DNA from: an uncultured archaeon
Lineage (GTDB): Archaea > Aenigmatarchaeota > Aenigmatarchaeia > CG10238-14
Length of the DNA: 64,000 bases
Direction of reading: 5' to 3'
Assembly (NCBI GenBank): GCA_964392445.1
Contig: CAYMPD010000003.1
Location: 29,133 to 93,132 of the forward strand
Under the pieces are notes generated by a model. It ran no database searches, was not told where the DNA came from, and saw only the letters and a list, made by a program, of their open reading frames with translations. The number at the start of each line of letters is the position of its first letter. The first letter of the stretch is position 1. A program made the position numbers and the translations under genes. Below, one piece after another: positions 1,147 through 53,542 of this stretch.

Positions 1147-1410
1147 ATGGCTGAAAATAGGGTAAGAGCAAAAAATGTTGTTGAAAAAGTAGTCATTAGC
1201 GAAGAAACAGGTAAAAAATTTGGAATGGTAAGTAATGTTGACTTTATCACTGAGAGTGGTGAACTTCTAAATATAGTGGTCGACGGTGCAACAAAGTCTC
1301 TTAGGGAACTTAACCTCAAGACAGACGAGAAGGGAAGAATTCTTGTTCCATTCAGTGCAGTAAAATCCATTGGAGATTTTGTAATAGTAAGTGAGAATGA
1401 ATTGATTTAG
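1147..1410 (+). CDS. PRC-barrel domain protein (CdpB2-like cell-division accessory)
   Basis: 87 aa; VVISEETGKKFGMVSNVDFITESGEL...ILVPFSAVKSIGDFVIV PRC-barrel signature. Confidence 0.8.
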   Translation: MAENRVRAKNVVEKVVISEETGKKFGMVSNVDFITESGELLNIVVDGATKSLRELNLKTDEKGRILVPFSAVKSIGDFVIVSENELI

Positions 1411-2468
1411 AAGTTTATTTTTTCATCTATCTTCAAATTCGGTGATCTATCTACTTTATCCAATTCTTTGACAAATTCATTTCTTTTACTTCTGTAATAA
1501 GCACAAACACCAATCATAGCAGCGTTATCAGTGCATAGTTCTTTGGATGGAGTTATTACTTTAACACCTAACTTTCTCATTGATTTTCTAAATCTTCTTC
1601 TTATGTAAATATTTGAAATCACACCACCACCTAGAATCAATTGTTTAGGATTATATTCTTCAACCGCCTTTTCCACCTTCAGAATCAAGGAATCTGCTAT
1701 TGTTTTTTGGAAGGATGCACAAAAATCTGGAACAATATCACTAAAATCATCTCCATACTTTTTCTTGAGTTTCTTTATCTTAATGACACAAGCGGTCTTT
1801 AAACCAGAATAACTGAAATTATAATCCCTTCTTCTCACCATTGGTATCGGGAGTTCAAATCTTTCTGGGTCACCTTTTTTCGCAAATTCTTCAATCACTG
1901 ATCCACCAGGATAACCGAGCATTAATGGTCTAGCAACCTTATCAAAGGCTTCTCCTACAGCATCATCCAAAGTTCTCCCGATCAGCTTGTATTTACCATG
2001 ATCTTCCATCAGAACTATTTCTGTATGTCCGCCAGACACAAGAACACACATAATTGGAAATTTCAAATCATTTTTCAGATTACCGTAATAATTCCCTTTA
2101 CTGTTCTTTGCGAGATTACTGTAAATATGTCCTTCCATGTGGTTGACGAGGATAAGAGGTTTATTGTATTTTTCTGATAATTCTTTAATTTTCTTTATCC
2201 CGACTTCAAGTGCAATAGCAAGCCCAGGACCAATAGTTACTGTAAAAGCATCTAGGTCTTGGATACCAATTTTCGCTCTTTTCAAAGCCAATTCTATTAC
2301 CGGTTCTATTCTTTCCTTATGCGCTCTTTTGGCTATTATTGGAACTACTCCTCGCCATTTTTTGTGAATATCAACTTGAGAAGAAACAATATTAGAAAGC
2401 ACCCAATCGTTTTTGCAAACCGAGGCACTTGTTTCATCACATGAGGTATCTACTGCTAATATTTTCAT
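1407..2468 (-). CDS. tsaD: tRNA t6A37 threonylcarbamoyltransferase TsaD, bacterial type
   Basis: Likely start MKILAVDTSCDET at 2468. Motifs GVVP..AKRAH, NHMEGH, VSGGHT, DDAVGEAFDKVAR, FSYSGLKTA, CTDNAAMIG. Confidence 0.93.
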   Translation of the reverse strand: MKILAVDTSCDETSASVCKNDWVLSNIVSSQVDIHKKWRGVVPIIAKRAHKERIEPVIELALKRAKIGIQDLDAFTVTIGPGLAIALEVGIKKIKELSEKYNKPLILVNHMEGHIYSNLAKNSKGNYYGNLKNDLKFPIMCVLVSGGHTEIVLMEDHGKYKLIGRTLDDAVGEAFDKVARPLMLGYPGGSVIEEFAKKGDPERFELPIPMVRRRDYNFSYSGLKTACVIKIKKLKKKYGDDFSDIVPDFCASFQKTIADSLILKVEKAVEEYNPKQLILGGGVISNIYIRRRFRKSMRKLGVKVITPSKELCTDNAAMIGVCAYYRSKRNEFVKELDKVDRSPNLKIDEKINF

Positions 2469-2469
2469 T

Positions 2470-3285
2470 TTAATCACTTGTTTTAGAAATGGTTGATAAT
2501 CTTCCACCCGTCAGAATATTTGAGGACCAGTCTCGCTCTTTTCTAATCATTATTCTGAAACCTTTGTCGAGTATTTTTTTAGTGTATAAGTTCTTATCGA
2601 AGTCTTTAATTATCTTACTTATTTTGATTAATGAATCCACGATCTCTTCCTGTTCACTATTTCCCTCAGCCTCAACTTTTATATGAATTGGCGCGAAACA
2701 TTTAGGATCACTATTTTCTAAAATATAACAGCCTTCATAACCCCCAATAATCCTGGATATAGTATCCTTAAGTCCAATTATTTCTTTTTGTGTGAATAGT
2801 AGGTTCTCATCGGGTTTAGCATCTTGGTGAAACGTTTCATCATCTTTATACATCTTACTTGTTTCTACAACCCAAAGATGGAGGTATGCGACCGACATCA
2901 CCACACAATGATTTTTATCACTTGGAGAAATCTTGTCTCTTAGTACATTAATGAACATTATAAGGTCATTCGAATCGAGATTATTTAATGTGGTTCTTAT
3001 CATATCTCTGAGTAATTCTAATTGTTCTTCGTTTTCTGGATCGAATTTAAGAAACGAGACTAATTTATGTTGTTTGAGAAAATAGTTGTTCGGGACTATT
3101 AAATCCGCTTTTGACTCCTCACCTTTAACTATTGAAGGCCTGTTGATGTTCGGGAATCCCGTGCAAATATTACCTTTGTACAATCCAGGAACTTCTTTAT
3201 TTTTATACTGATAATCCCAAAAAGCTTTTTCAGCTGGTCCTAAGGATATTCCTAAGTTCTCGTAAAAATCTTCTATTTCTCTCAC
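2470..3285 (-). CDS. Hypothetical protein between tsaC-tsaE and tsaD
   Basis: 271-aa ORF tightly coupled to both neighbours (4-nt overlap upstream, 1-nt gap downstream); no motif recognised. Confidence 0.7.
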   Translation of the reverse strand: MREIEDFYENLGISLGPAEKAFWDYQYKNKEVPGLYKGNICTGFPNINRPSIVKGEESKADLIVPNNYFLKQHKLVSFLKFDPENEEQLELLRDMIRTTLNNLDSNDLIMFINVLRDKISPSDKNHCVVMSVAYLHLWVVETSKMYKDDETFHQDAKPDENLLFTQKEIIGLKDTISRIIGGYEGCYILENSDPKCFAPIHIKVEAEGNSEQEEIVDSLIKISKIIKDFDKNLYTKKILDKGFRIMIRKERDWSSNILTGGRLSTISKTSD

Positions 3286-4358
3286 AATATCTCCTCGCTA
3301 TATTCTATTCTCCTAACATTATCTTTTTTCTGATAATAAAACTTAATCCAGATTAGATTGTAAGAATTTTTTAGTTCCTTTAATTTTTTAGACATCTTTT
3401 CAGCCCATTCTATCGCTATTATATTTGAACCTTTAATCATATTTTCAAAGCCTAATTCTACAAATTCTTCTTTTGGATCAAACATTCTATAAGTATCAAC
3501 ATGGAAAAACTTACCATCATTCCTTTTCAAATTGTATTCTCTTACTAAAACAAATGTAGGTGAAAGAATGGTTTCATCTATACTTAGAGCTTCTGCTAAT
3601 CCCTTTGTGAAAACAGTCTTACCCGTGCCTAGTTCTCCTTGGAGTGCAAATAATATAGGTTTATCGTCATTTTTTTTCTCTTCCATGAGCCTTTTTGCTA
3701 GTTCACGTGTTCCACGTTCGGAATGTGAAGTAAATACCTCAGGTGATTTTAGGTTCACATCACCTTCACGCAGGATTTTAGGTTCGTTTAATGTAGTGTT
3801 AATGACAGTTGAAGGTTTGTTTTTGGGAAGTTCGCCCGCATCTATGATTAGATCTATTAGATTTTGTTGTTTTTTGGATATATTATCAAGAATATCTTTG
3901 ATCGTGTAGGGAGTTTTTTTGTAGGACATATTTGCCGAAGTAGCAGTGATAGGCTTTCCAAATTCTTTGATTATTCTTAGAACTAAATCATATTTCGGTA
4001 TTCTTACTCCTAGTGTCCCATCTTCCCCCTCAACCTTATCCGCTAATTTATGCTTGCCTCGAGAAACCACTGTCATTGGGCCAGGTAAATAATTATCATA
4101 GATATTCTCTGAAGTCTCATTCAATTCTACATATTTTCTTGCCATTTTTTTACTATCTACAGCCACTGATAGCGCTTTACCAAATCTTTTCGATTTGTAG
4201 TCAAGGAGTTTATTCACGGATTTCTGGTTTGTAACATCTGCACCTATACCATAACAAGTTTCGGTCGGATAAACAACTAAACCGTCCGATCTTAGAATAT
4301 TAACTGCTAAATCTATAACCTCTTTTTCATTATTTGACGTTAATTTCAATATTTTCAT
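3282..4358 (-). CDS. tsaC-tsaE: TsaC (YrdC/Sua5-type threonylcarbamoyl-AMP synthase) - TsaE (ATPase) fusion
   Basis: N-half VVYPTETCYGIG, K..R...K.L, PGPMT, GVRIP, TSANMS, STV. C-half ALQGELGTGKT, SPTFVLVREY, HVDTYR, IEWAE. Confidence 0.92.
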   Translation of the reverse strand: MKILKLTSNNEKEVIDLAVNILRSDGLVVYPTETCYGIGADVTNQKSVNKLLDYKSKRFGKALSVAVDSKKMARKYVELNETSENIYDNYLPGPMTVVSRGKHKLADKVEGEDGTLGVRIPKYDLVLRIIKEFGKPITATSANMSYKKTPYTIKDILDNISKKQQNLIDLIIDAGELPKNKPSTVINTTLNEPKILREGDVNLKSPEVFTSHSERGTRELAKRLMEEKKNDDKPILFALQGELGTGKTVFTKGLAEALSIDETILSPTFVLVREYNLKRNDGKFFHVDTYRMFDPKEEFVELGFENMIKGSNIIAIEWAEKMSKKLKELKNSYNLIWIKFYYQKKDNVRRIEYSEEIL

Positions 4359-4379
4359 TCACATAACCTCAGAAACAAT

Positions 4380-4706
4380 TCATTTACCGAATATTTCTTT
4401 ATCCAGTCTATTGGATAAATAACTTTTTTTGATTAACTCATCCATTGATAGTTTTTCTAAACCTTTTTTCAACCGAATTAAGTAAACTTGAAGACGGAAG
4501 GATTCGAAGCTAGAACCTTCTTTAACATCTAATAGACTATCTAGGCGTTTAATAGAGCGGGAAACAGCCATAGGATAAATATTGAGAGTTCTAGATATTT
4601 CTCTGACAGTTAATCTAGCTTCTGGTGTTTTTGAAACTTCTTTTAGCAATTTTAGTACCATTAAATCATATTTTCTTTGTTTTTTAGAGACTTTTTTCTT
4701 TGTCAT
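4380..4706 (-). CDS. Winged-helix DNA-binding protein
   Basis: LTVREISRTLNIYPMAVSRSIKRL HTH pattern. Confidence 0.65.
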   Translation of the reverse strand: MTKKKVSKKQRKYDLMVLKLLKEVSKTPEARLTVREISRTLNIYPMAVSRSIKRLDSLLDVKEGSSFESFRLQVYLIRLKKGLEKLSMDELIKKSYLSNRLDKEIFGK

Positions 4707-4852
4707 AAAGAACCCTCACTTATGTTCAAGTTACACCTGTAACATATTGAAATTAGTCGTTAAACTTTAAATAACCACTATTCTTTTGATTCGGATTTAA
4801 AGTTCCAATAAAACTTAAAAACATCAATTGTTAATAATACGTAAGTGTTCTT

Positions 4853-6344: not shown

Positions 6345-8534
6345 GTGAATAAAATGAAAATAGACTCACTCCAAAAATATGATATACCAAACGAATTTAT
6401 CGAGAAGTTCAAAGAACAAGGAATTGAAAAATTATATGAGCCACAAAAAAAATCACTGAAAAAAGGTTTGTTAGATTTCAAAAATCAAATAATCGCAGCA
6501 CCAACAGCTTCAGGAAAAACACTCATCGCAACATTAGCAGCGATAAAAAAAATGAAAAAAGAGAGATCAAAAGTAATTTATCTAGTTCCACTTATTGCTT
6601 TGGCCGGTGAGAAATGGAATTACTACAGAGAATTGTTCAAGGGAACTGGGTTTCGAGTTGCCATATCTACAGGTGATCTTGACTCTACCAGTGATTGGTT
6701 AGCTAATTACGATTTAATCATCATGACCACCGAGAAATGCGATTCTTTGATGCGGCATGGTGCTAGGTGGATTAATAATGTGGGACTGATTATTGCTGAC
6801 GAAATTCATTTGCTTAACGATTCTTCACGTGGCCCAACACTTGAAATTACTTTAACAAGACTTCGTGAGACTGTTCCTAATGCTCAGATTCTTGGACTAT
6901 CAGCAACTATCTCCAATGTTGATGAAATATCAGAATGGTTGGAAGCTGTGTCTGTGAAATCGGATTTTCGTCCGGTTGAACTACATGAAGGGGTATACTT
7001 TGACAACAAAATCCAGTTTTTTGGAAGGGATGATTACGAACTTAAAGAAAGTTTGCCGCCTGAAAAAGCGATACTTGACAACACTGTGAACTTAAGGAAG
7101 CAGTCCTTATATTTTCTTTCAACACGGAGAAACACTGAATCCCTTGCGAGAAGGTTGGGTAACTTTAACAAAAAATTATTGAAGAAAAATGAGAAGGAAC
7201 AATTGGAAAAATTATCTGAGGAAATTTTAAATGTACTCGAAAAACCGACAAGACAGTGTAAAAAGTTAGCAAGATATATCAAAAATGGAATCGCTTTTCA
7301 TCATGCTGGAATTCTAAATCGGCAGAAGTCTTTGATAGAGGATAATTTCCGAAAAGGTTTAATCAGATCAATCTGTGCTACTCCAACCTTGGCAATGGGA
7401 GTTTCGCTTCCGGCATTTCGCGTAATAATCCGAGATATTCAAAGATATTATTCTGGTCACGGGATGAAATACATACCTATTATTGAATACAAACAGTTTG
7501 CTGGGCGCGCAGGTAGACCAGAGTATGATGAATTTGGAGAATCAATATTGGTTGCAAAAAGTGAAACCGATGCCCATAGACTTACTGAGACTTATATTTT
7601 TGGTGAACCCGAGGACGTTTATTCCAAACTTTCACTTGAACCGATTCTTCGTATGCATACTCTTGCTCTTATAGCCTCAGGTTTTATCGACTCCAGAGAG
7701 GGACTAATGGAATTTTTTGAAAAAACTTTTTATGCTTACCAGTATGGCGAGATGACTGATATAGAACTCATATTAGATAAAATTCTAGAATTACTCTTCA
7801 AGTTTAAATTCCTTCAGCAAAAGAAAGACAAAATCGTCCCGACAAGAATTGGTAAGAGAGTATCAGAATTATACTTGGATCCAATAACTGCTCACCATTT
7901 CATAAAATCCCTTAGAAAAGCCAATGAGTCCACATCTTTATTCTCTTTCATCCATACCATGGCTAACACACTAGAAATGAGGCCTTTACTTAGAATCAGA
8001 AAAAAAGATTATGATGAGATAAATGATAAAATAGTGAGCTCAGTTTTCTTGGAAAAAATACCCGAAGAGTGGGATTTGGAATATGATACTTTTATGAAAA
8101 GTGTTAAGACATCAATGTTATTCGAATTGTGGATTAACGAGGAAACCGAAGATAAAATACTTTCGAAGTTTCGAGTAGCACCAGGAGACTTATATTACAA
8201 ACTGAAGAATGCTGATTGGTTGCTTTACTCTTTGAATGAACTAACTTTGTTGTTGGGAAAGAAAAAAGTACTTGGTAAGATTCGGAAGTTGAGGGTGAGG
8301 ATGAAGTATGGGGTAAGAGAGGAATTATTACCTTTGGTTAGACTCAAGAAAATAGGTAGAGTTAGGGCGAGGAGATTATATGACCATAATCTCAAATCAG
8401 TATCGGATTTAAGAAAAATACCTTTATCAAGTCTTTCAAAAATTATAGGACCTAAAATTGCTAACTCAATTAAAAAACAGTTGGGGGAAGATCATAAGGA
8501 GATTAAAGAACAAAAACAATTGACTTTGGGGTAA
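6345..8534 (+). CDS. hel308: Ski2-like SF2 DNA helicase Hel308/Hjm
   Basis: APTASGKT, DEIH, GLSAT, HHAG, ATPTLAMGVSLPA, QFAGRAGRP, C-terminal HhH (IGRVRARRLY). Confidence 0.93.
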   Translation: MNKMKIDSLQKYDIPNEFIEKFKEQGIEKLYEPQKKSLKKGLLDFKNQIIAAPTASGKTLIATLAAIKKMKKERSKVIYLVPLIALAGEKWNYYRELFKGTGFRVAISTGDLDSTSDWLANYDLIIMTTEKCDSLMRHGARWINNVGLIIADEIHLLNDSSRGPTLEITLTRLRETVPNAQILGLSATISNVDEISEWLEAVSVKSDFRPVELHEGVYFDNKIQFFGRDDYELKESLPPEKAILDNTVNLRKQSLYFLSTRRNTESLARRLGNFNKKLLKKNEKEQLEKLSEEILNVLEKPTRQCKKLARYIKNGIAFHHAGILNRQKSLIEDNFRKGLIRSICATPTLAMGVSLPAFRVIIRDIQRYYSGHGMKYIPIIEYKQFAGRAGRPEYDEFGESILVAKSETDAHRLTETYIFGEPEDVYSKLSLEPILRMHTLALIASGFIDSREGLMEFFEKTFYAYQYGEMTDIELILDKILELLFKFKFLQQKKDKIVPTRIGKRVSELYLDPITAHHFIKSLRKANESTSLFSFIHTMANTLEMRPLLRIRKKDYDEINDKIVSSVFLEKIPEEWDLEYDTFMKSVKTSMLFELWINEETEDKILSKFRVAPGDLYYKLKNADWLLYSLNELTLLLGKKKVLGKIRKLRVRMKYGVREELLPLVRLKKIGRVRARRLYDHNLKSVSDLRKIPLSSLSKIIGPKIANSIKKQLGEDHKEIKEQKQLTLG

Positions 8535-8601
8535 TGGGCTAATTTGGCTATACTTCGAGCTTCGGGGGTTCGCGATCTGGGTTCAAATCCCAGTTACCCC
8601 A
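8528..8601 (+). tRNA. tRNA-Pro(CGG), no intron, CCA not encoded
   Basis: Acceptor GGGGTAA/TTACCCC, anticodon arm CGAGC-TTCGGGG-GTTCG, T arm CTGGG-TTCAAAT-CCCAG. D stem is weak (C12:A23). Overlaps the hel308 stop codon. Confidence 0.9.
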
Positions 8602-8647
8602 CTAGAATAAAACCTACCTAAAAATACGAAAAAAAGAAAAAATCAAC

Positions 8648-15301: not shown

Positions 15302-15389
15302 TGCTCCCGACGGGATTCGAACCCGTGTCCTCGGCTATCTTCCAGAAGTCGAAAGGCCGATATCCTTGGCCGGACTAGACTACGGGAGC
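15302..15389 (-). tRNA. tRNA-Glu(TTC) with a 13-nt canonical 37/38 intron (15337-15349)
   Basis: Acceptor GCTCCCG/CGGGAGC, anticodon stem TCGGC/GCCGA, loop CTTTCG|A, intron ACTTCTGGAAGAT with CTTT:GAAG central helix. Confidence 0.9.
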
Positions 15390-15394
15390 TTGAG

Positions 15395-15483
15395 TGGGCC
15401 GAACAGGATTTGAACCTGTGATTTCTGCCATTTTGATTCGAAAATCGTCAAGGCAGCGTCTTAACCAACTGGACCATCGGCCC
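15395..15483 (-). tRNA. tRNA-Val(GAC) with a 15-nt canonical 37/38 intron (15431-15445)
   Basis: Acceptor GGGCCGA/TCGGCCC, stem CTGCC/GGCAG, intron ATTTTCGAATCAAAA with TTGA:TCAA central helix and TT-TTCG-AA hairpin. Confidence 0.9.
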
Positions 15484-51016: not shown

Positions 51017-53542
51017 TTAGACCTTCTGAATTACTCTTGGTTTAGGTTCAAACACCAAACCTTCCTCTTTCATCTTCTTGATTATATCACTAGGCCTCTC
51101 AACACCCTCTTCCTTGGCTCTTCTTGTTATTTCCTCAACAGGAATATTCTTTCCTATAGTATTATGTAACTCGTCAATCACATCAAGCATAATTCTTATC
51201 TTACTTCTCTGTGAACTAGTCGCCATCGCACCCTCAGCACGATCAATATCAATCAAACCAGTTTCAGGGTCAAAACCGAATTGTCGCAAAGAATATTTCA
51301 ACACTTCAATAGCTCTTTCTGCATCTTCTTCCTCAACTTTTTCACTTAATCTTACCTTTGCACTAGCTTCAGATAGCCTTATCAATCCCTCATATTGTCT
51401 TAATGTTATTGGAACAGGGGATTCTTCGCTTGTGGATTTACTTCTGAGATTAATGTAGAAATCTTTGAGTTTTTTCCCTGCCGGTTCGGTTAATTTTGGT
51501 TGACAATTTAGTTTTGTGTAAGCTATGTATTTTTTCAGGAAGGGAGTAGCAATCTTTGGAGCTATCTCGTCGGTCTTAAAATGTCTGGAATCGAGGATAT
51601 GATCAACTATCTTCTCATCTTTTTGAACATCTGGAACATCTCTTAAAGCAAACTTAAGATCAAACCTTGACAGTAAAGTTTCTGGGATATTAATTTGTTC
51701 TCTAATTGGAATGTACGGATCGAATCTACTTAATTTAGGATTAGCACCTGCAAGAATAGAAGTTTTGGACGGTAATGTTGCTACAATTGAAGCCTTTGCT
51801 ATTGATACCGTCTGAAGACTTAATGCCTCGTGCATTGCTACTTGGTCTTCTTTGTTCACTTTTTCGAATTCGTCTATAGATACGAGTGACTTGTTGGCTA
51901 GTACTAAAGCACCCGCTTCTAAAACCCATCCTCCCATGAATTGTTCATCCTTCACTACTGAGGCGGTATTATGGACTATCACCCCATTAACCATGAAACT
52001 ATGGGTACCTTCTATTGTTAGATCATAAACAAAATCTTCTGAATCATTTTCAACAATCTCAACCTTTTCAATTTCATCCCAAAATATATCAGAATTAGCT
52101 AGTTTTTCAGATATTTTTCTTACTGTAGCCACACTATCTTTTTCACTCAGACTATCAGCCGTCTTCCAAAAAATACCCCCATCCTCAATGGTAGGTATAG
52201 GATTATCAAGTGTACATTCAACAGTTTTACCAGATCTTGTTGTTATCTTCACCATTTTCTTCGGTGCGGGTATTTTCCAATATTGTGATATTTCCAGAGG
52301 CTTTATTTTCATGTCTTCTTCATCAAGAGAGATTATTTTTTGTTTTTTAGGATTTTTAGCAACGATTATACCATTTTCTTTTTCTAATTCCCCTTTCTTT
52401 AATTCTCTTTCAACCAAATCTCTTATTTCTAAAATCTTTCCATCCCCAAGAAACACTTTAGAATCCCCTTTAACACATAAACCAGCTCCCGTCACTCCCT
52501 TTCCACTCACATACTTTCCACGTGGCATCATATCCGAAGCTAATTTCAACAACCTCGATTTACCTGTAGAAGGGTCACCTATCAATAAAATATGAATATC
52601 ACCCCTAATCCTAGTCCCATCTTTAAGTTCATGTGGAGTTCCACCAAACAACTGAAGTACAATAGAAAGTTTAATCGGCTCTAGACCATACATTGTTGGG
52701 GCCAAAGAAGCAGTGAGTTTTTCATATATTTTAGGATCTTTTGCAAATTCCTTGATCTTCTTTTCTTCCTCAGGATCAATCTCAATTTCTTCCCACTCTT
52801 CTTCCGATACCTCAAAATTGTTAGCATGAATCAATATATCCATCTGTCTGGTTCTTTTACCGCGTGAAGTCGTCCTAGGAATTTCTTCTAAAACACCAAA
52901 AACTTTTATCCTGTTCCCAGGTTCAGACCTATTTCTCATTTTTGGTGATACCAAATCTTCTTTCAAATAAACCATTATTTCAGACGGTCTTTCCCCAGTA
53001 GTTATCTCAAAAGGCTCTTCGACTGCTATCCATCTTGCATCATACAATTTTTCCTTGATTATCTTGAAATTCCTTCTATTACCACAATCACATTTAACCG
53101 GATATTTGACCTTCTTTGATTTTTTGTCTTGTATAATTTTTAATCTCTGTCCACATTCCTGACATTCAAAGACTATCTCTGAAATTTCTGGTCTTACTTC
53201 CGAAGCTCGCTTAACAATACCGTCTATTGTGAGAAAATTGCCTATATGTTCTGCTCGAAGATTTCTTATTCGGATAGCCGTACTTTCGGGGAGATTAAAG
53301 AATCTTATGTTAACGGGTTGTTTTTTAGGGAAATCAATTTCCTCAACCGACTTATTTATCAGCTCCAAATTCTCAGCTGGGTTTTCAAGTATAGCATCTG
53401 CGAGCGCAGGATTGAATTTATCTAGTTCTTGAAAGTCAATCCGAAGACTATTATTCCCTAAACTAACAGCTTGGGCTAAGTCCTTGTAATATTTCTCCCT
53501 AAGAAATTCAGTGAATTGATCAGCAATATCATTCTTTTTCAT
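51017..53542 (-). CDS. mcm: MCM replicative helicase containing a mini-intein
   Basis: Zn finger CQEC/CDC, GDPSTGKS, IDEFEK, ANP, LLSRFD, ITLRQ. Confidence 0.95.
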   Translation of the reverse strand: MKKNDIADQFTEFLREKYYKDLAQAVSLGNNSLRIDFQELDKFNPALADAILENPAENLELINKSVEEIDFPKKQPVNIRFFNLPESTAIRIRNLRAEHIGNFLTIDGIVKRASEVRPEISEIVFECQECGQRLKIIQDKKSKKVKYPVKCDCGNRRNFKIIKEKLYDARWIAVEEPFEITTGERPSEIMVYLKEDLVSPKMRNRSEPGNRIKVFGVLEEIPRTTSRGKRTRQMDILIHANNFEVSEEEWEEIEIDPEEEKKIKEFAKDPKIYEKLTASLAPTMYGLEPIKLSIVLQLFGGTPHELKDGTRIRGDIHILLIGDPSTGKSRLLKLASDMMPRGKYVSGKGVTGAGLCVKGDSKVFLGDGKILEIRDLVERELKKGELEKENGIIVAKNPKKQKIISLDEEDMKIKPLEISQYWKIPAPKKMVKITTRSGKTVECTLDNPIPTIEDGGIFWKTADSLSEKDSVATVRKISEKLANSDIFWDEIEKVEIVENDSEDFVYDLTIEGTHSFMVNGVIVHNTASVVKDEQFMGGWVLEAGALVLANKSLVSIDEFEKVNKEDQVAMHEALSLQTVSIAKASIVATLPSKTSILAGANPKLSRFDPYIPIREQINIPETLLSRFDLKFALRDVPDVQKDEKIVDHILDSRHFKTDEIAPKIATPFLKKYIAYTKLNCQPKLTEPAGKKLKDFYINLRSKSTSEESPVPITLRQYEGLIRLSEASAKVRLSEKVEEEDAERAIEVLKYSLRQFGFDPETGLIDIDRAEGAMATSSQRSKIRIMLDVIDELHNTIGKNIPVEEITRRAKEEGVERPSDIIKKMKEEGLVFEPKPRVIQKV
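51968..52477 (-). mobile_element. 170-aa mini-intein in MCM (C356-N525), no endonuclease domain
   Basis: GAGL|CVKGDSKV...VYDLTIEGTHSFMVNGVIVHN|TAS; Cys1, His-Asn end, Thr+1; block B reads TLDNP. Confidence 0.93.

Follow-up and report, generated by a model that had tools for sequence, protein, structure and literature searches.

The Kae1/TsaD and Sua5/TsaC families belong to a universal set of roughly 60 proteins found in every cell, and Kae1 is used as a marker of vertical descent. How does an archaeal chromosome come to carry bacterial-type genes for the synthesis of N6-threonylcarbamoyladenosine (t6A), and what has become of the archaeal genes in the same organism? The question is raised by a stretch of 64,000 nucleotides (the window) from a tiny, uncultured archaeon of the Aenigmatarchaeota (Aenigmarchaeota, a DPANN group; assembly GCA_964392445.1, contig CAYMPD010000003.1, positions 29,133 to 93,132), where four closely packed genes form a t6A operon at 1407-4706 on the minus strand, in the order winged-helix (wHTH) gene, tsaC-tsaE (tsaCE), orphan open reading frame (ORF), and tsaD. 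An earlier reading of the DNA (the sequence-only reading) had suspected horizontal acquisition of a bacterial cassette, perhaps at the expense of KEOPS. The answer reached here is that the operon is very probably the sole t6A pathway of this archaeon: a cassette derived from ultra-small bacteria of the candidate phyla radiation (CPR, or Patescibacteria) took the place of the resident kae1-tsaC pair in situ, and bud32 and pcc1 disappeared from other parts of the genome. The proteins are bacterial in identity, both genes have their affinities with CPR, no KEOPS, TsaB or other TsaC is found, the chromosomal slot is shared with relatives, and the catalytic motifs are intact. Judging from genome sequences, an archaeon can apparently live without KEOPS.

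Bacterial Identity of the Cassette

The tsaD gene (1407..2468, minus strand, 353 aa) encodes a bacterial, CPR-type threonylcarbamoyltransferase. Its product scores 367.6 bits with the bacterial equivalog model TIGR03723 (cut-off 296.1), and at 174.4 bits it stays below the cut-off (375) of the archaeal model arch_KAE1 (TIGR03722). The bacterial signatures to which the sequence-only reading had drawn attention (DTSCDET, GVVP, NHMEGH, DDAVGEAFDK, and FSYSGLKT) are all present in the translation of 1407-2507 on the minus strand; the conserved start is the ATG at 2468, common to all seven orthologues, and not the GTG at 2507. When solved structures are compared, bacterial TsaDs give 211-244 bits, Kae1s 95-133, and Qri7 104, the last value ruling out a Qri7-like affinity. 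E. coli TsaD is 37% identical to the protein and the Kae1 of relatives about 30%.

The neighboring tsaC-tsaE gene (3282..4358, minus strand, 358 aa), also of CPR type, is a fusion (Pfam Sua5_yciO_yrdC, E = 1.2e-45; TsaE, 4.1e-30). Its N-terminal half is the TsaC domain, a threonylcarbamoyl-AMP (TC-AMP) synthase (aa 8-203; 3750..4337, minus strand), with 172.9 bits on TIGR00057 (cut-off 123.2), and its C-terminal half is the TsaE P-loop ATPase domain (aa 212-344; 3327..3725, minus strand), with 88.1 bits on TIGR00150 (cut-off 60.1) and matches of 1e-11 to 1e-16 to TsaE chains of the PDB. The ATPase domain had been recognized earlier, and its presence is confirmed. The TsaC domain shares 55-66% identity with its counterparts in CPR fusions, compared to 30-39% with the native TsaC/Sua5 of relatives, which is either a stand-alone protein of 203-220 aa, often encoded beside kae1, or a Sua5 of 351-364 aa.

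The cassette could in principle be a decaying remnant or serve some other use, its host doing without t6A, and there is precedent for such economy, as some obligate DPANN symbionts lack Sua5/TsaC altogether (PMC10321239). Against this, seven genomes have unbroken ORFs that are 68-79% identical, and 132 columns of TsaD are invariant, among them the metal ligands; the latter are H110, H114, and D314, which align with H111, H115, and D300 of E. coli TsaD and are invariant in the seven orthologues. The motifs of the other protein are conserved as well: K55, S141, and N143 of TsaC are invariant in 60 fused proteins, and the TsaE motifs (Walker A GELGTGKT at 241, SPTF at 266, and HVDTYR at 286) are kept in at least 90% of the same 60. 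The substrate, too, appears to be in place, in that all nine ANN-decoding tRNAs found have U36-A37-A38, 36-UAA-38 being reported as a requirement of the bacterial enzyme (PMC13276492). We therefore regard a cassette that no longer makes t6A as extremely unlikely.

Loss of KEOPS and Absence of TsaB

The genome to which the window belongs is a metagenome-assembled genome (MAG) of 1.2 Mb in 54 contigs, 94.9% complete. It has one PF00814 gene and one PF01300 gene, hence no second TsaC/Sua5. Kae1 is not found in it, the sole match to TIGR03722 being the tsaD gene at 174 bits. Nor is Bud32 found there, the best match to TIGR03724 (35.9 bits, cut-off 125) being a paralogous kinase that relatives also have. 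Pcc1 (PF09341) is likewise undetected in this genome, with a best match at E = 0.3, as is Cgi121 (PF08617), of which there is essentially none in the whole order, so that the model may not reach these lineages. TsaB is missing too: TIGR03725 and PF00814, at E values up to 1 and 10, matched TsaD alone in this genome.

A search of 40 related genomes gave the same picture at the level of genera. TsaD and TsaE are above cut-off only in the genus of this genome (g1, 5 of 5 genomes) and in a second carrier genus (g9, 2 of 3). Conversely, Kae1 (429-481 bits) and Bud32 (194-244 bits) are above cut-off in 30 other genomes and missing from all eight of g1 and g9, and Pcc1, detected in none of these eight, turns up in 19 of the 33 others. 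No sampled genome holds both systems, and one (G016) has neither. Across 371 genomes of the phylum there is no further credible TsaE. A match in G163, a 58%-complete MAG, was rejected as likely bin contamination, the contig concerned (C6, locus L162) having bacterial PolA-like, YebC-like, and GltX-like genes. The same contig holds a SOD-like gene, and the TsaE there is stand-alone.

Replacement of KEOPS, which the sequence-only reading had put forward with a "perhaps," thus gains in strength, Kae1, Bud32, and Pcc1 being undetectable in every g1 and g9 genome and present in relatives. It could still be argued that KEOPS was overlooked, being unassembled or too divergent, and that the cassette is an addition. 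Completeness is 80 to 97%, one genome has neither system, and the failure to detect Cgi121 in the whole order indicates that small subunits can escape hidden Markov models (HMMs). However, Kae1 and Bud32 are strong in 30 relatives and fail together in all eight genomes of the two carrier genera, and the slot that kae1-tsaC natively occupies is filled by the cassette in g1 and empty in g9. A KEOPS that was merely missed is accordingly very unlikely.

The Chromosomal Slot

In relatives, the gene order is Hel308 (minus), wHTH, kae1 and tsaC (plus), PRC-barrel (minus), and ATPase-wHTH (minus). In two g1 genomes, G000 (the carrier of the orphan ORF in this genus) and G003, the flanks are as in relatives, and what lies between them is wHTH, tsaCE, the orphan ORF in some cases, and tsaD. 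The wHTH gene (4380..4706, minus strand, 108 aa; Pfam HTH_24, E = 2.7e-7) is first in the operon and native to the archaeon, sharing 54-69% identity with its counterparts, which precede kae1 in relatives and tsaCE in G003. On the other side, the PRC-barrel gene (1147..1410, plus strand; Pfam PRC) is 68-76% identical in relatives, where it adjoins tsaC of the kae1-tsaC pair. Farther out, the Hel308 helicase gene (6345..8534, plus strand; NF002654, 771 bits; Pfam archaeal helicase domain 4) marks the native upstream flank and is syntenic in all relatives examined. In g9, the kae1-tsaC slot is empty, the order being PRC-barrel, an ORF of 95-105 aa, an ORF of 180 aa, and Hel308, and the cassette is elsewhere in the genome.

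These arrangements bear directly on whether a bacterial fragment was simply joined to archaeal DNA during assembly or binned with it. MAGs of this phylum can hold CPR contigs, and the contig with TsaE in G163 is bacterial. However, the genes on both sides match those of relatives in synteny and at 50-76% identity, the cassette is embedded 30 kb deep in a contig that is at least 93 kb long, and the same junctions recur in five g1 MAGs. The GC content is even across the operon region, and the genes overlap or abut native genes. The concern about a chimeric join, raised with the sequence-only reading, is thereby removed: the arrangement recurs in independent MAGs, and the chance of a chimera is vanishingly small.

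The packing of the operon is tight throughout. The tsaCE ATG follows the wHTH stop codon by 21 nt, with GAGGT in the gap; the GTG start of the orphan ORF overlaps the tsaCE stop (GTGA), and its own stop lies 1 nt before the tsaD ATG, this gene being translationally coupled between the other two. The tsaD and PRC-barrel genes are convergent and overlap tail-to-tail at 1407-1410, which are their stop codons. The flanking genes had been described earlier as archaeal and coupled. The first part stands, on the evidence of Hel308 and, further along, of the genes for an MCM helicase with an intein, the large subunit of replication factor C (RFC), and NreA. The second does not, as an overlap of convergent stop codons is a sign of dense packing rather than of translational coupling.

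The wHTH gene may be a regulator of the t6A operon. It is retained 5' of the foreign cassette in g1, and in relatives it lies directly 5' of kae1-tsaC (loci L136-L143). A candidate archaeal TATA box, TTATTTAAAG, can be read from the sequence at 4765..4774 on the minus strand, 59-68 nt 5' of the wHTH start codon.

Origin of the Cassette in CPR Bacteria

The closest non-archaeal TsaDs, at 53-57% identity, come from MAGs of CPR3, Microgenomates, Saccharibacteria, Dojkabacteria, Roizmanbacteria, and Kerfeldbacteria. Other near TsaDs are from MAGs of 0.6-1.8 Mb titled Gammaproteobacteria, a doubtful label, and from the planctomycete Uabimicrobium. Loci L033, L034, L036, L037, L039, and others, whose titles read "uncultured Gammaproteobacteria" or "Pseudomonadales bacterium," cluster with CPR in both of the trees described below, and the labels on these MAGs are probably wrong. 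The CPR-type operon has the same design as the archaeal one: 53 of 76 bacterial loci have TsaC and TsaE in a single ORF of about 360 aa, which in most of them immediately precedes tsaD, and, counted over 82 related loci, the fusion is present in 59.

In a maximum likelihood tree of TsaD (71 sequences), the seven archaeal TsaDs are monophyletic (support 99), lie within a CPR clade (95), and are split from the Kae1 of relatives (100); their clade leaves out all 48 sampled bacterial TsaDs of the same type. In a maximum likelihood tree of the TsaC domain (48 sequences), which is congruent with that of TsaD, the fused archaeal TsaC (97) falls within the clade of fused CPR TsaC (95), and the native archaeal TsaC/Sua5 is split from the fused TsaC (98). 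TsaD does not branch within Kae1, and the horizontal acquisition suspected earlier holds and extends to TsaC, both nesting within CPR. The agreement of the two trees indicates that the whole two-gene cassette moved from CPR bacteria to archaea.

The bacterial operons share the lack of TsaB. In 40 bacterial genomes with this type of TsaD, none had a TsaB (TIGR03725) above cut-off, the only match in each being TsaD, whereas TsaB was present in all ten bacterial control genomes. Among the 40 is an unpublished genome, G382 (locus L054), which also supplies a single row in each tree; none of the claims rests on it. The chromosome of Candidatus Uabimicrobium (L038 / L157) is complete, measures 9.3 Mb, and has this TsaD subtype, with TsaB below the model cut-off. 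Given this case, TsaB independence may not be limited to reduced genomes.

What goes beyond the sequence-only reading is that TsaC also is replaced and is fused to TsaE, that the donors are CPR bacteria, that TsaB is absent, that displacement in g1 occurred in situ, and that the carrier genera are not sisters.

History in Two Archaeal Genera

How did two genera come to have the same cassette? The relationships of their chromosomes were examined with a tree of four native neighborhood genes, concatenated to 1173 columns; the genes being linked, it is a locus tree and not a genome tree. In it, g1 groups with g2, g3, g7, and g10, and g9 with g4 and g5 (support 98/92). A single ancestral gain in sister genera was rejected, as none of 200 bootstrap trees unites g1 and g9 in a single clan and the approximately unbiased (AU) test gives p = 5.7e-5. 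Since g1 and g9 are not sisters, a second event is needed.

That event could be dispensed with if the family ancestor had gained the cassette once and kept it alongside KEOPS for a long time, with differential loss of one system or the other and no second transfer. The monophyly of both archaeal TsaD and archaeal TsaC agrees with this history, as does the position of g1 and g9 on opposite sides of the 98/92 branch; TsaD and Kae1 are known to coexist in eukaryotes. It requires, however, at least three to four independent losses of the cassette and two of KEOPS, the two systems occur together in no sampled genome, and the cassette occupies different loci in g1 and g9. The distances also speak against it. 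In the TsaD tree, g9 is about as far from G000 (0.57) as is the congener G003 (0.55), yet its distance in the linked native genes is roughly double that of G003. We judge a single ancient gain of this kind to be unlikely.

Two independent gains from closely related CPR donors would also account for the different insertion sites; donors are sparsely sampled, and CPR and DPANN are known to share habitats. However, the seven archaeal sequences form a clade (99) that includes none of the 48 bacterial TsaDs, the same being true for TsaC, and a rare orphan ORF is found in the same slot in G000 of g1 and in G019 of g9. Two gains seem to us a little more doubtful still than the single ancient one. The best fit is given by one gain from CPR by an archaeon followed by a separate event that took the cassette to the second genus, which would most simply be an archaeon-to-archaeon transfer.

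In G019 the complete cassette is present twice, in diverged versions, on the contigs C20 (L145) and C18 (L146). The two copies probably represent two strains in one bin, for which contamination is put at 6%.

Several points weigh against the replacement of the resident pathway by a TsaB-less CPR cassette as set out above. The genomes are all MAGs. The trees come from "quick" searches with support from the Shimodaira-Hasegawa-like approximate likelihood ratio test (SH-aLRT) only. Donors were searched for starting from the motifs DTSCDETS and V[ND]HMEGH, which biases the comparators to this TsaD subtype, and other bacteria are represented only by E. coli and three nominally non-CPR sequences, several of the MAG labels looking wrong. 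The absence of TsaB is a result of HMM searches, and a very divergent or non-homologous partner is possible, the orphan ORF being one candidate, although it is weakened by being missing in four of the five g1 genomes. Finally, within the KxR / SxN tetrad of TsaC (taken from PMC10321239), the arginine of KxR is replaced here by a lysine, K57, with R58 next to it, whereas 41 of 60 fusions have R at this position.

A Putative TsaB-Independent Mechanism

The TsaD-TsaB interface of the bacterial complex can be occupied by either TsaE or tRNA, which compete for it, and TsaE resets TsaD by hydrolyzing ATP (PMC10484737). By analogy, the cycle in this archaeon might run as follows. The TsaC domain would make TC-AMP, and TsaD would pass the threonylcarbamoyl moiety on to A37 of the archaeal tRNAs that decode ANN codons. 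TsaD itself is probably a homodimer, as is mitochondrial Qri7; because there is no TsaB, a homodimer of the Qri7 type is the simplest model. The TsaE domain would then bind the TsaD dimer interface and, once a turnover is complete, reset TsaD with ATP. With TsaC and TsaE in one chain, TC-AMP, which is labile, could be delivered beside the active site of TsaD during the reset step.

More tentatively, and at a little less than an even chance in our estimation, CPR and these archaea share a third, hitherto undescribed t6A architecture, with a TsaB-independent TsaD and a single TsaC-TsaE chain coupling TC-AMP synthesis to the ATPase reset. If so, the system would be compact enough to cross domains and to replace all of KEOPS. 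These Aenigmarchaeota would then amount to a natural KEOPS knock-out, bearing on the essential role beyond t6A that has been claimed for KEOPS, and an operon-encoded HIT-like enzyme in some of the genomes would add control over the adenylate intermediate.

The Orphan Gene

The third gene of the operon (2470..3285, minus strand, 271 aa) is an orphan with a possible tandem HIT-like fold. Its family consists of nine proteins of 270-275 aa that are 50-86% identical, and among relatives it is found only in G019, in the same tsaCE-tsaD slot. No family assignment was obtained from Pfam, NCBIfam, PHROGs, or a PDB profile search, and the ESM Atlas gave sub-threshold leads only. In a predicted model of medium quality (pLDDT 60.9, pTM 0.68), Foldseek ranks GalT-like, DUF4931, and HINT proteins first (E = 0.008-0.03), and VIA-align gives Z scores of 9.0 for DUF4931 and 7.6 for a GalT-like protein. 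The invariant motifs of the family, YLHLW and FAPIHI, could be degenerate HIT motifs. The possibility that the ORF is TsaB was discarded, there being no ASKHA signal. HIT enzymes act on nucleotidyl and acyl-adenylate compounds, which makes a role on TC-AMP conceivable; that the protein acts on this adenylate intermediate is speculative.

What occupies the space between tsaCE and tsaD varies. Four g1 genomes have nothing there, G000 and one contig of G019 have an ORF of 271-273 aa, and G012 and the second G019 contig have unrelated ORFs of 138 and 157 aa. An additional ORF is present at this point in several CPR loci as well. The positions concerned are 3544-3960 in L030, 3487-3960 in L032, and 3179-4000 in L031.

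Other Features of the Window

Elsewhere in the window, the MCM gene lies at 51017-53542 on the minus strand, and aa 356-449 of its product match an intein N-terminal splicing region. ARAGORN calls a tRNA-Pro(CGG) at 8528-8602, overlapping the end of the Hel308 ORF; the call is not in Rfam at gathering score. Two adjacent tRNAs are found at 15302-15389 and 15395-15483 (Rfam calls within 15302-15483), where ARAGORN gives only one.

Significance and Comparison with Known Systems

All archaea have been reported in reviews to carry Kae1 and Bud32, with TsaB and TsaE having no archaeal homologues, and among bacteria TsaB was found lacking in only two Mycoplasma species, along with TsaE (PMC4615747). 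In the literature, of which our coverage is incomplete and which leaves novelty unproven, nothing was found on DPANN archaea with t6A genes of bacterial type, on TsaC and TsaE being naturally fused, or on the loss of TsaB in CPR. The replacement is real and lineage-specific: a universal pathway has been exchanged for its xenologous counterpart, a TsaB-less CPR variant that we have not found described. Bacterial xenologues have taken the place of both universal genes, and of KEOPS no detectable subunit is left. In Saccharolobus islandicus, attempts to delete any of the KEOPS genes failed even when a bacterial t6A system was provided, which was read as evidence of a second essential function of KEOPS (PMC10989989). 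The present archaea would be a natural counter-example to such a function, or would show that it is lineage-specific. They also offer a two-protein system for asking how TsaD works without TsaB and whether TC-AMP is channelled, and they add a clear CPR-to-DPANN transfer of an informational gene set.

The system has most in common with the CPR tsaCE-tsaD operon, which has the same fusion, gene order, and lack of TsaB, and to which its TsaD and TsaC are 53-57% and 55-66% identical, respectively. The CPR operon is itself uncharacterised and visible in databases only; unlike it, the archaeal copy stands behind a native wHTH gene in the old kae1-tsaC slot. The bacterial TsaC plus TsaBDE systems of E. 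coli, B. subtilis, and T. maritima use the same families, which are above equivalog cut-offs here, and have the metal ligands, P-loop, and SxN in common with the present proteins. The differences are that no TsaB is detectable here, that TsaC and TsaE are one polypeptide, and that the host is an archaeon. In the mitochondrial Sua5 plus Qri7 system, an enzyme of the TsaD lineage and of bacterial origin likewise serves a non-bacterial host without TsaB. Qri7, however, needs no TsaE, whereas in the archaeon TsaE is retained, fused, and conserved, and TsaD is far closer in sequence to the bacterial enzymes.

Fused t6A modules are known also from Pandoravirus TsaN (TsaD-TsaC-SUA5-TcdA), for which no TsaB, TsaE, or KEOPS partners were found (PMC10484737); here TsaC is joined to TsaE rather than to TsaD, and the host is cellular. 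Archaeal KEOPS (Kae1, Bud32, Pcc1, Pcc2, and Cgi121) carries out the same reaction on the same tRNAs and, in relatives, from the same chromosomal slot, but no subunit of it is detectable here, and the P-loop ATPase TsaE stands in for the non-homologous ATPase Bud32. As an evolutionary event, the replacement resembles the in situ xenologous gene displacement in operons reportedly described by Omelchenko et al. in Genome Biol in 2003, in that the flanks stay as they were and the resident genes between them give way to foreign ones of equivalent function. It differs from the known cases in that the genes are a pair of universal proteins, that their order is inverted (from kae1-tsaC to tsaCE-tsaD), and that an extra ATPase domain was gained in the exchange.

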